Below, piece after piece: positions 25,961 to 28,092 of a stretch of 64,000 nucleotides of DNA. How positions within the stretch are numbered: the first letter of the stretch is position 1; each line of letters starts with the position of its first letter. This DNA comes from a virus. Its lineage: Duplodnaviria; Heunggongvirae; Uroviricota; Caudoviricetes. Position numbers and translations under genes: made by a program. The stretch is taken from the IMG/VR virus record IMGVR_UViG_3300008262_000026; one strand, written 5' to 3'. Under the pieces are notes generated by a model. It had not been told where the DNA came from. It made no database searches and was given only the letters and a program-made list of their open reading frames with translations.

Positions 25961-26692
25961 ATGTTCCAATTCGCAGAAGTCGGTGGTGCAGTTCGGGATA
26001 AGTTCCTGGGACTGGATTCCAAAGACGTTGATTTTGTTGCTGTTCCTGAAAATGCTGATACCTTTCTGAATGCAGATGCCGCATTTATGTTTCTCTGCAC
26101 TCACCTGAAAGAACAGGGGTTCAAAGTATTTCTGGAAACTCCTGAATTCTTTACTGTTCGGGCACAAGTTCCTGATGGTCATCCACTGAAAGAACGCACT
26201 AATGTTGCTGATTTTGTGCTTGCCCGTAAGGATGGTCCCAGCAGTGATGGTCGCCGCCCTGACTTTGTTCTGCCCGGAACCCTGATGGATGACCTGCAGA
26301 GACGGGATTTTACCGTCAATGCGATGGCAATTCTGAATGGGGAACTGGTGGATCCATTCGGGGGCAGGAACGATCTGGAGGAGGGTCTGCTGCGGTTTGT
26401 GGGTGATCCTACCCAACGCATCGCAGAGGACGGTCTGAGGGTCATGAGGGCACTGAGGTTCTTTGTAACTAAAGGGTTTAATATGGATGCCGATACTTGG
26501 GATGCAATCAACAGTGATTTTGCTGCTGAAATGCTGACCAAAGTATCTGTAGATCGTATCCGTGAGGAACTGGAAAAAATGTTCTTTACGAATACTCTGT
26601 GGAGTCTGAAAGTTCTGGATGATTTGAATACCGAAGTTCGCAAGGCAATCTTCCGTGATGGCCTGCGTCTGATGCCCACTCTGAAAAAGTAA
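25961..26692 (+). CDS. nucleotidyltransferase, poly(A) polymerase/CCA-adding enzyme head-domain family
   Basis: GGAVRD...DVDF (GGxVRD plus DxD) signature of class II tRNA nucleotidyltransferases. Only 243 aa. Confidence 0.6.
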   Translation: MFQFAEVGGAVRDKFLGLDSKDVDFVAVPENADTFLNADAAFMFLCTHLKEQGFKVFLETPEFFTVRAQVPDGHPLKERTNVADFVLARKDGPSSDGRRPDFVLPGTLMDDLQRRDFTVNAMAILNGELVDPFGGRNDLEEGLLRFVGDPTQRIAEDGLRVMRALRFFVTKGFNMDADTWDAINSDFAAEMLTKVSVDRIREELEKMFFTNTLWSLKVLDDLNTEVRKAIFRDGLRLMPTLKK

Positions 26693-26765
26693 ATTATGAT
26701 TAACCTTCTAAAAATCGCATTCATTGCTTATATTGCAGTTGCTATCTACGGTCAGGGTATTAAAG

Positions 26766-27314
26766 ATGGAAAAAGAGAATGTAACAGACCTCAGGAAGCA
26801 CCTGTTGCAACGACACCTAAACCTTGAACTACATCGTCCATTTTTAGATGAAGAACTCAACATCGCCACTTTTTATTGTTGGAACCTATCAGGACAACTG
26901 GTAGGATACCAGCAATACAACCCAAATGGTGATAAGAAAATCTTCAACTCTAAACTGGAGGGCAAATACTACACCTACAGAAACAAGAATCACCAAACAG
27001 TAGTTGTATGGGGCACTGAGAGTCTCTATCAGTCAGATGGTGTTGTCTATCTGACTGAAGGAATCTTTGATGCTGCCCGTATGACAAATGTGGGACAATC
27101 TGCTCTTGCTGCTATGGCAAATAATCCACCAAAGGATTATAGAAACTGGTTGCAAATGCTAAATCGTCCTGTGGTTGCTGTTTGTGATAATGATGATGCA
27201 GGAAAAAAACTTGCCAAGTTCGGGCATTATGTAGAAGTGGTGCCTGATGGTAAAGATTTGGGTGATGCTCCTGATGATTATGTTAGGTATCTACTCAACA
27301 AGTATGCCACCTGA
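26766..27314 (+). CDS. Toprim domain protein
   Basis: LTEGIFDA ... VCDNDDAG ... (Toprim E and DxD motifs). Start trimmed to MEKENV. Confidence 0.5.
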   Translation: MEKENVTDLRKHLLQRHLNLELHRPFLDEELNIATFYCWNLSGQLVGYQQYNPNGDKKIFNSKLEGKYYTYRNKNHQTVVVWGTESLYQSDGVVYLTEGIFDAARMTNVGQSALAAMANNPPKDYRNWLQMLNRPVVAVCDNDDAGKKLAKFGHYVEVVPDGKDLGDAPDDYVRYLLNKYAT

Positions 27315-27882: not shown

Positions 27883-27937
27883 CACCTGAATAACTGACAC
27901 AAGGCACTTGACAGACAAAATCAAATGCCTTATACTA
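27883..27937 (+). terminator. cassette A10 (variant hairpin + TATACT 27931..27936)
   Basis: CACCTGAATAACTGACACAAGGCA lead-in. Confidence 0.45.
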
Positions 27938-28000
27938 AATAAACAAACAAAGATAAGGCAGCAACTTACTGCACTAAACCGTTAATTTAGACACGCAAAA

Positions 28001-28040
28001 AACTTATCTTGTCTAAAAGTTGATACAGCATTAAAAACTG
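28001..28040 (+). promoter_or_regulatory. copy of the TTATCTTGT...GATACAGCA module in the 5' leader/promoter region of the TROVE gene
   Basis: ACTTATCTTGTCTAAAAGTTGATACAGCATTAAAAAC resembles GGTTATCTTGTAAAAGATACAGACAGCAATT from the tRNA-like inserts. GGTTAACC palindrome follows at about 28055..28075. Confidence 0.4.
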
Positions 28041-28092
28041 TTTCCATCTTTTAGGTTAACCGACATTAACCAATCAACTTGAGGAAATTACT

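Follow-up and report, generated by a model that had tools for sequence, protein, structure and literature searches.

Two tandem RNA modules, A (27949-28011) and B (28016-28081), make up the 5′ leader (~27943-28092) of a gene for a protein with a predicted Ro60-like fold in a viral sequence of 64 kb (the window, meaning the whole stretch of DNA analysed), and covariance models establish, from sequence, that both belong to the module family of a noncoding RNA cluster lying 3′ of the same gene. The leader is very probably a transcribed, RNA-level module pair, and our best reading, offered tentatively and by analogy with Y RNAs, is that Y-RNA-like modules are fused to the Ro-like protein's own mRNA, where they might mediate translational feedback.

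Setting of the locus

The window has the appearance of a T4-like cyanophage, its nearest records being Synechococcus phages B3 and B23 (Kyanoviridae); these two alone matched in a megablast search against phages, at 71% nucleotide identity and over the Ro-like gene alone. The leader occupies a 199-nt gap between the end of an upstream ORF (27893) and a 488-aa ORF (28093-29559), which is followed 3′ by a 775-nt non-coding stretch. The locus is flanked by a Toprim/primase-like ORF (26724-27314, + strand) and an N6/N4 DNA methylase ORF (30865-31593, + strand). A further ORF (25961-26692, + strand), 1.4 kb 5′ of the Ro-like gene, is a homologue of CCA-adding tRNA nucleotidyltransferase (Pfam PolyA_pol head and RNA-binding domain, PHROG 24229); the window holds no canonical tRNA, its tRNA-like RNAs lack an encoded CCA, and YrlA of M. 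smegmatis receives CCA (PMC4201824). In one related phage contig (L005, 2511-2804) ARAGORN calls a permuted tmRNA (tag ANKIVAFSRQTALV*) just 5′ of the leader.

A protein with a predicted Ro60-like fold

28093..29559, + strand: gene for the 488-aa protein, DUF2828 and DUF7788, Ro60-like fold of helical ring and vWA (Pfam; PHROG 850; AF2/Foldseek)

The original prediction named this a TROVE gene, a name that is right at the level of fold, because the AF2 model matches Ro60 chains over its whole length, but not at that of domain assignment, where Pfam gives DUF2828 and DUF7788. No Pfam TROVE domain was found even at E<=10, either in the window protein or in three distant homologues, and a PDB sequence search with the 488-aa protein returned no relative; the label of PHROG 850 is "RNA-binding protein". 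The model, built on a 40-sequence alignment to which homologues of ~40% identity had been added by profile search, reached a pLDDT of 77.5 and a pTM of 0.70. In a Foldseek search of the PDB its only full-length matches were the Ro60 chains 9nf8_A and 2i91_B (E 4e-6 and 3e-5, TM 0.51-0.54), all other structural matches being confined to the vWA part, and an earlier, weaker AF2 model from a shallow alignment (pLDDT 56) already ranked Ro60 and Rsr first. As modelled, the 488-aa protein has the architecture of Ro60, an alpha-helical ring with a C-terminal vWA domain. Literature searches gave nothing relevant for "DUF2828" and nothing specific for cyanophage with Ro60 or tRNA-like, and neither the CAGCAA module nor DUF2828 as a Ro analogue is described in the searchable literature; Burroughs & Aravind 2016 may treat the family, and a prior description there is possible.

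Two split-helix modules in the leader

Two covariance models were used for the searches, which covered the whole 64-kb window on both strands with filters off: R1, built from 37 cluster spacers of related loci with the leaders left out (9-bp helix, six covarying pairs), and R2, built from 39 distinct tRNA-insert hairpins of the window and 38 related viral loci. The leader and its surroundings comprise the following features.

27908..27936, + strand: sigma70-like promoter TTGACA-17-TATACT (11/12 matches; predicted TSS ~27943)
27949..28011, + strand: leader module A (R1 30.8 bits, E 1e-4; RNAalifold and pair counts in 17 leaders; MFE fold)
27950-57 / 28003-10, + strand: module A helix P1, AAGATAAG (27950-57) pairing with CTTATCTT (28003-10)
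27959-64, + strand: CAGCAA, separated from the P1 5′ strand by one G
27974-78 / 27986-90, + strand: module A inner hairpin P2, CTAAA/TTTAG, closed by TGC 27970-72 / GCA 27995-97
27997-28002, + strand: module A A-run before the P1 3′ strand
27996..28033, + strand: junction of the A 3′ strand with the B 5′ strand and CAGCA (R2 21.7 bits, E 0.0014, two non-canonical pairs)
28016..28081, + strand: leader module B (R1 20.6 bits, E 0.024; MFE fold)
28017-24 / 28073-80, + strand: module B helix P3, AAGTTGAT (28017-24) pairing with ATCAACTT (28073-80)
28026-30, + strand: CAGCA, separated from the P3 5′ strand by one A
28025-28 / 28038-41, + strand: module B hairpin P3a, ACAG/CTGT
28054-59 / 28066-71, + strand: module B hairpin P4, GGTTAA/TTAACC (6 bp, MFE fold)
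28081..28086, + strand: Shine-Dalgarno (SD) sequence GAGGAA, 7 nt before ATG 28093

Each module has an 8-bp helix with CAGCA(A) after its 5′ strand and conserved outer pairs AAG.../...CTTG. The segment originally flagged, 28001-28040, consists of the 3′ strand of A, a 6-nt linker and the 5′ strand of B with its CAGCA, and is read as the A/B junction because P1 and P3 are the conserved helices and each 5′ strand leads into CAGCA(A). The module string quoted for it is present, with coordinates about one base off (28002-28038 in fact), but its description as one homologous hairpin copy gives way to two half-modules, given that two of the seven R2 pairs are non-canonical and that P1 and P3 covary in 17 leaders. 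The palindrome and the good SD that had been noticed alongside are both there, as P4 and GAGGAA. The P3 3′ strand, ending at 28080, directly adjoins the start of the SD at 28081, which opens with the conserved G found after the module helix (G is invariant in column 71 of A3), and the helix-SD junction AACTTGGAG is invariant across the 17 leaders.

RNAalifold on the 17 distinct leaders returned exactly P1 and P3, with compensatory changes at three pairs and one broken cell; P3 covaries from G-C to A-U among the related leaders. In the upstream regions of related loci the variable base of CTNATCTT changes with upstream AGATNAG (A/T, C/G, G/C), and AAGTTRAT changes with ATYAACTT just 5′ of the SD. 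Over P1, P3 and P2 in the 17 leaders, 95.1% of cells pair and eight pairs have changed on both sides, a value reached by 0/500 shuffles, while a slid partner left 19-42% paired; since the related leaders share ancestry, these represent few independent covariation events within a close clade. The single-sequence MFE fold of the window leader recovers P1, P2, P3, P3a and P4.

Three other pairings were set aside. A self-contained leader hairpin (TTATC/GATA) was discarded because the variable base of CTNATCTT covaries with upstream AGATNAG and not with downstream GTTGAT, and because the R2 parse also needs two non-canonical pairs. Anti-SD pairing of the A-B linker (UCU/CUC with GGAG in the MFE fold) was dropped because the linker is not conserved (GTAATA in L002, L005 and L012), and a CAGC pairing with CUGC further 3′, seen in the window MFE fold, is not conserved in other leaders. 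In L006 (2936-2990) the leader holds a single hybrid module, with the A 5′ strand AAGATGAT, the B 3′ strand ATCAACTT and one A-A mismatch, which looks like a recombination deletion between the two CAGCAAT repeats.

Kinship of the leader with the downstream cluster

29570..29605, + strand: G5/C5 hairpin (29570-76 / 29589-95) and promoter-like TTGACA-17-TAAAAT (29577-29605), conserved in related loci
29612..29665, + strand: split-helix spacer S1, TAGATGATT-CAGCAAT...AATCATCTA (R1 61.5 bits)
29670..29786, + strand: tRNA-like RNA with hairpin module 29698-29734 replacing the anticodon loop (Rfam tRNA 45 bits; R2 48.7 bits)
29811..29895, + strand: degenerate tRNA-like RNA with hairpin module 29829-29863 (by sequence; R2 30.4 bits)
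29898..30015, + strand: tRNA-like RNA with hairpin module 29926-29962 (Rfam tRNA 46.2 bits; R2 46 bits)
30016..30070, + strand: split-helix spacer S2 (R1 64.3 bits)
30077..30157, + strand: split-helix module enclosing a T-arm, YrlA-like topology (R1 24.4 bits, E 0.003)
30162..30274, + strand: tRNA-like RNA with hairpin module 30194-30229 (Rfam tRNA 54.6 bits; R2 42.9 bits)

Behind a single promoter-like site (29577-29605) the cluster holds seven modules, which does not fit the five transcription units initially proposed: S1 and S2 are spacers whose helix is 9-10 bp long, one module is a split helix enclosing a T-arm, and four are hairpins within tRNA-like RNAs. Their geometry is uniform, an A-rich run entering one strand and the other strand exiting into CAGCAA(U), with (U/A)AGAU/AUCU(A/U)G at the far end of the helix; the hairpin form is the module circularly permuted, in place of the tRNA-like anticodon loop. 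The 7-bp stem of the insert hairpins covaries (five pairs with double changes; 0/500 shuffles reach the observed score), and the T-arm module shares its helix, AAGATAAG/CTTATCTT, exactly with leader module A.

Outside the cluster, R1 matched nothing in the 64 kb except A and B; the motif of the noncoding RNAs does occur in the gene's 5′ region. Module B scores just 20.6 bits in the window, where CAGCAUU stands in place of CAGCAAU, and up to 48.8 bits in related leaders. The R2 match at 27996-28033 ranks fifth, after the four inserts, and is the best outside the cluster; at that E value the likeness of leader to tRNA insert, as first claimed, is not due to chance. A further R2 match, a pseudo-hairpin at 30055-30094, falls where two split modules of the cluster stand in tandem, which shows how such junctions can mimic the hairpin form. 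The 105 R1 matches in 30 related loci all lie on the gene strand, with A and B in nearly all the close loci, and CAGCA occurs nine times, on the + strand only, against 0.98 expected in the 885 nt of the two non-coding stretches (ninefold, P ~1e-6).

Rfam finds three "tRNAs" in the 775-nt stretch, each with 43-60 extra bases at the anticodon region, and ARAGORN finds no tRNA anywhere in the 64 kb; between 27000 and 31000, Rfam 15 yielded nothing except tRNA, whether at the gathering threshold or at E<=10, and no match to a Y RNA model. The degenerate tRNA-like RNA (29811-29895), missed by Rfam, has an acceptor stem GGGGAAG/CTTCTCC and a T arm without a D arm. The first tRNA-like RNA has an SD-like purine tract, GGGAGGAGG (29749-29757), in its variable region, and this tract is kept in L007, L010 and L016 (GGGAGGAGGAAG). 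Around the insert of the third, a direct repeat CTAAAAA (30193-30199 and 30234-30240) resembles an insertion or splice junction; the idea of tRNA inserts as introns was set aside, other inserts having neither a CTAAAAA-type repeat nor a restorable anticodon stem. A related contig, L018, carries 21 canonical tRNAs and one spacer module only, after an aberrant tRNA-like RNA; there (184-331) the aberrant 92-nt RNA, uncalled by ARAGORN, precedes a perfect spacer module (R1 60 bits). This array rules out the S modules as general tRNA spacers: since its 21 canonical tRNAs are not separated by modules, spacer modules go with odd tRNA-like RNAs and not with general tRNA processing.

Linkage of motif and gene in phages and bacteria

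The association of motif and gene is kept down to ~40% protein identity, in phages and bacteria. Among phages, homologues of ~40% identity have upstream modules in L031, L033, L034, L037 and L039; these distant phages place one or two modules 0-20 nt 5′ of the SD, with helices that are entirely different yet complementary (AAGGTTCT...AGAACCTTGGAG in L039; AGATTAC...GTAATCT in L033 and L034), and in L039 the helix-SD junction recurs with a different helix (AGAACCTTGGAG). L035 has two modules just downstream instead.

A protein search for the family gave >7000 clusters and matched at least 575 bacterial genomes. Among 79 loci from Clostridia and other bacteria, 64 carry CAGCAA with a helix of 7 bp or more within 250 nt upstream on the coding strand, as against 0/79 on the reverse strand and 4/316 coding control windows. 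The 127 bacterial modules have 78 distinct helices, occur up to three in tandem and keep the ends AAG...CTTG(T), the last often enclosing a full tRNA-like domain (Rfam: tRNA). In the neighbourhood of the gene at 80 bacterial loci, RtcB follows directly in 40, a WYL protein precedes in 29, and a 311-aa ORF, which has no Pfam match, precedes in 43. The order WYL-domain protein, 311-aa ORF, one to three CAGCAA modules, DUF2828 protein, RtcB ligase was recorded in L116, L096 and 38 others (L040-L119). Such WYL-modules-DUF2828-RtcB loci closely parallel the rsr-Y RNA-rtcB repair operon (PMC7790460, PMC4201824); by tblastn, an RtcB homologue is absent from the window and the viral loci, in contrast to the bacterial ones.

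Promoter-like sites and an RNA-level element

The promoter-like site at 27908-27936 ends 14 nt 5′ of module A, so A and B are predicted to be transcribed; similar sites stand 12-19 nt before the first module in L002, L005, L006, L012, L022 and L024, and elsewhere the promoter-like site is replaced by a tRNA-Val with a hairpin 5′ of the leader. No promoter- or terminator-like site was found between module A and the ATG in the window. The window promoter (27898-27936) is bracketed by AAGGCA...TGCCTT. The G5/C5 hairpin directly after the stop codon of the Ro-like gene holds the cluster promoter's -35 hexamer in its loop, and this hairpin may be a terminator or stabiliser of the upstream mRNA that overlaps the next promoter.

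The original prediction had entertained, as an alternative, a DNA-level promoter or operator common to the transcription units. The module arms are inverted repeats, and covariation alone cannot separate RNA helices from DNA palindromes; yet the arms are 43-55 nt apart, include G-U pairs and occur on a single strand throughout (the 105 R1 matches in related loci as well as the bacterial modules), and some module copies are embedded in tRNA-like genes. The modules lie downstream of promoter-like sites, the sole overlap being a weak 9/12 match at 30255-30282, and contain no -35/-10 hexamers or compact palindrome of a kind active as DNA. We regard a DNA operator as barely credible; covariation with some G-U pairs, restriction to the coding strand and position downstream of a promoter-like site support the leader motif as a very probable RNA-level element.

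Possible mechanism and rival explanations

From the analogy with Y RNA stems and the linkage of gene and motif across phyla, we infer that the motif is a candidate RNA ligand of the protein, as Y RNA stems are for Ro60. On this analogy the Ro-like protein probably binds the modules, and its binding could regulate translation, a step about which we are more doubtful than confident. Newly made Ro-like protein would bind the module copies on its own mRNA; an occupied module B, within the 30S footprint at -13 to -20, would block initiation; and the outcome would be negative translational feedback through mimicry of the partner RNAs. Because free cluster RNAs would compete for the protein, its synthesis would follow the supply of unbound modules. 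In bacteria and some phage clades a gap of 10-30 nt separates the last module from the SD, so direct SD occlusion would be clade-specific at best.

The main rival to feedback is that the leader modules are further Y-like small RNA genes on the promoter of the protein gene, co-transcribed, excised and acting in trans with the protein, with no effect on translation. We consider this unlikely, although several observations fit it. A position upstream of the gene would ensure co-expression, as with the Y RNAs encoded 5′ of rsr: in M. smegmatis and D. radiodurans they are released by cleavage of a shared precursor, Yrn1 and Yrn2 of D. radiodurans coming from a polycistronic precursor upstream of rsr (PMC4201824), so the upstream position can be explained without feedback and the leader modules may be just two more co-expressed small RNAs. 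The bacterial arrangement, with one to three tandem modules before the gene, often around a complete tRNA-like domain, and a 10-30 nt gap to the SD, points the same way, as do the many phage loci in which the leader directly follows tRNA-Val and would accordingly be part of a processed transcript. Against it, the B helix runs straight into the SD in 17/17 leaders, such that excision of B would leave an mRNA starting at the SD, and the window leader modules have no tRNA-like domain for the recruitment of RNase P or RNase Z. Processing of this kind and feedback are not exclusive of each other and can coexist.

In a weaker rival the modules are structural elements for processing or stability and go unread by the Ro-like protein, serving either as a 5′-terminal helix that shields the transcript from 5′-end-dependent RNases or as a spacer fold that presents the tRNA-like RNAs to RNase P/Z or to a dedicated, CAGCAA-recognising endonuclease; the two versions together we hold to be decidedly improbable. 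Split modules do stand at both predicted transcript 5′ ends (27950, where the -10 ends at 27936, and 29612, where it ends at 29605) and exactly between tRNA-like units, but the canonical tRNA arrays of the same phages have no modules, the motif also occurs as a hairpin inside tRNA-like RNAs, where it cannot be a spacer, and it tracks the DUF2828 gene across phyla, while the single-stranded CAGCAA, which is invariant, and the AAG/CTTG ends point to a specific reader.

Potential significance

Animals, a few bacteria and mycobacteriophages are known to have Ro60-Y RNA particles; to our knowledge there is no account of how the amount of Ro is adjusted to that of Y RNA. The DUF2828/DUF7788 family ranges from cyanophages to the WYL-...-RtcB operons of Clostridia and other bacteria. 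At its broadest, and with a probability that we put low, the helix with CAGCAA would be a previously undescribed, very widespread Y-like RNA class partnered with the DUF2828/DUF7788 family of Ro60 fold, and the SD-fused copy in the cyanophage clade a Y-RNA-mimic operator. If so, this would be the first Ro-family protein to govern its translation by means of a partner-RNA copy in cis; a large DUF family would gain a likely function, as a Ro-like RNA chaperone or RNA-repair scaffold, together with a candidate RNA ligand; and a new RNA motif, occurring in three topologies and matched by no Rfam model, would be established. The same reading would offer a compact test system for Ro-RNA feedback, consisting of a 150-nt leader, one protein and one conserved hexamer, and would bear on the purpose of anticodon-less phage tRNA-like arrays.

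Comparison with known systems

The cluster RNAs resemble tRNA genes (RF00005) in their acceptor, D and T arms, with scores of 45-55 bits; in contrast to tRNA genes, they have 43-60 nt in place of the anticodon loop, are rejected by ARAGORN and encode no CCA, and the leader modules are without any tRNA-like part.

The nearest counterparts are the Ro60/Rsr-Y RNA RNPs, including bacterial and phage YrlA/YrlB (Chen et al. 2014, PMC4201824) and the Salmonella rsr-yrlBA-rtcBA RNA-repair operon (PMC7790460). Shared with these are a gene for a ring and vWA protein beside small RNAs on the same strand, RNAs in which a terminal stem is joined to tRNA-like D and T arms, more than one RNA per locus, often 5′ of the gene and in polycistronic precursors, and, in bacteria, an RtcB neighbour. 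A stem formed by the two ends of the RNA is found in the predicted fold of leader P1 and P3 and of the 9-bp spacer-module helix. A tRNA-like domain in at least one RNA per locus is likewise present, with three Rfam tRNA matches and the T-arm module in the cluster; it is absent from both window leader modules and present in upstream modules of Clostridia loci. The differences begin with the protein, which belongs to Pfam DUF2828/DUF7788 and not TROVE. The known Ro-binding sequences, on the 5′ strand, are GGUCCGA in animals and GNCGAAN0-1G in YrlA/YrlB (PMC4201824), whereas the element here is a helix with CAGCAA(U/C); neither sequence occurs in the leader, and the single GNCGAA of the cluster is in the acceptor stem of a tRNA-like RNA. 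Because the motif differs, the analogy with Ro cannot borrow known binding data. The RNAs match no Rfam family other than tRNA. Their module, unlike Y RNAs, takes any of three topologies: a plain split helix, one wrapped around a T-arm or tRNA-like domain, or a hairpin occupying the anticodon position of an otherwise normal cloverleaf. This phage clade also differs in having one copy fused to the SD of the protein's gene. By analogy, the present system would work like Ro60-Y RNA yet falls outside the known families by its lack of a Pfam TROVE domain and of their Ro-binding motifs.

Autoregulation through ligand mimicry is represented by the E. coli thrS operator, which mimics the anticodon arm of tRNA-Thr, by the operators of ribosomal proteins L1, S8 and S15, and by the MS2 coat protein hairpin. 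The present case differs from these operators in its two tandem sites and in a presumed ligand that is deduced from gene neighbourhood. Likeness of the leader to the presumed primary RNA ligand was found with R1 and R2, trained on cluster modules only. In common with the operators, a copy of that presumed ligand lies in the gene's own 5′ leader, beside or overlapping the ribosome-binding site, which here the site abuts, and the layout is the one expected for competition between partner RNA and mRNA.
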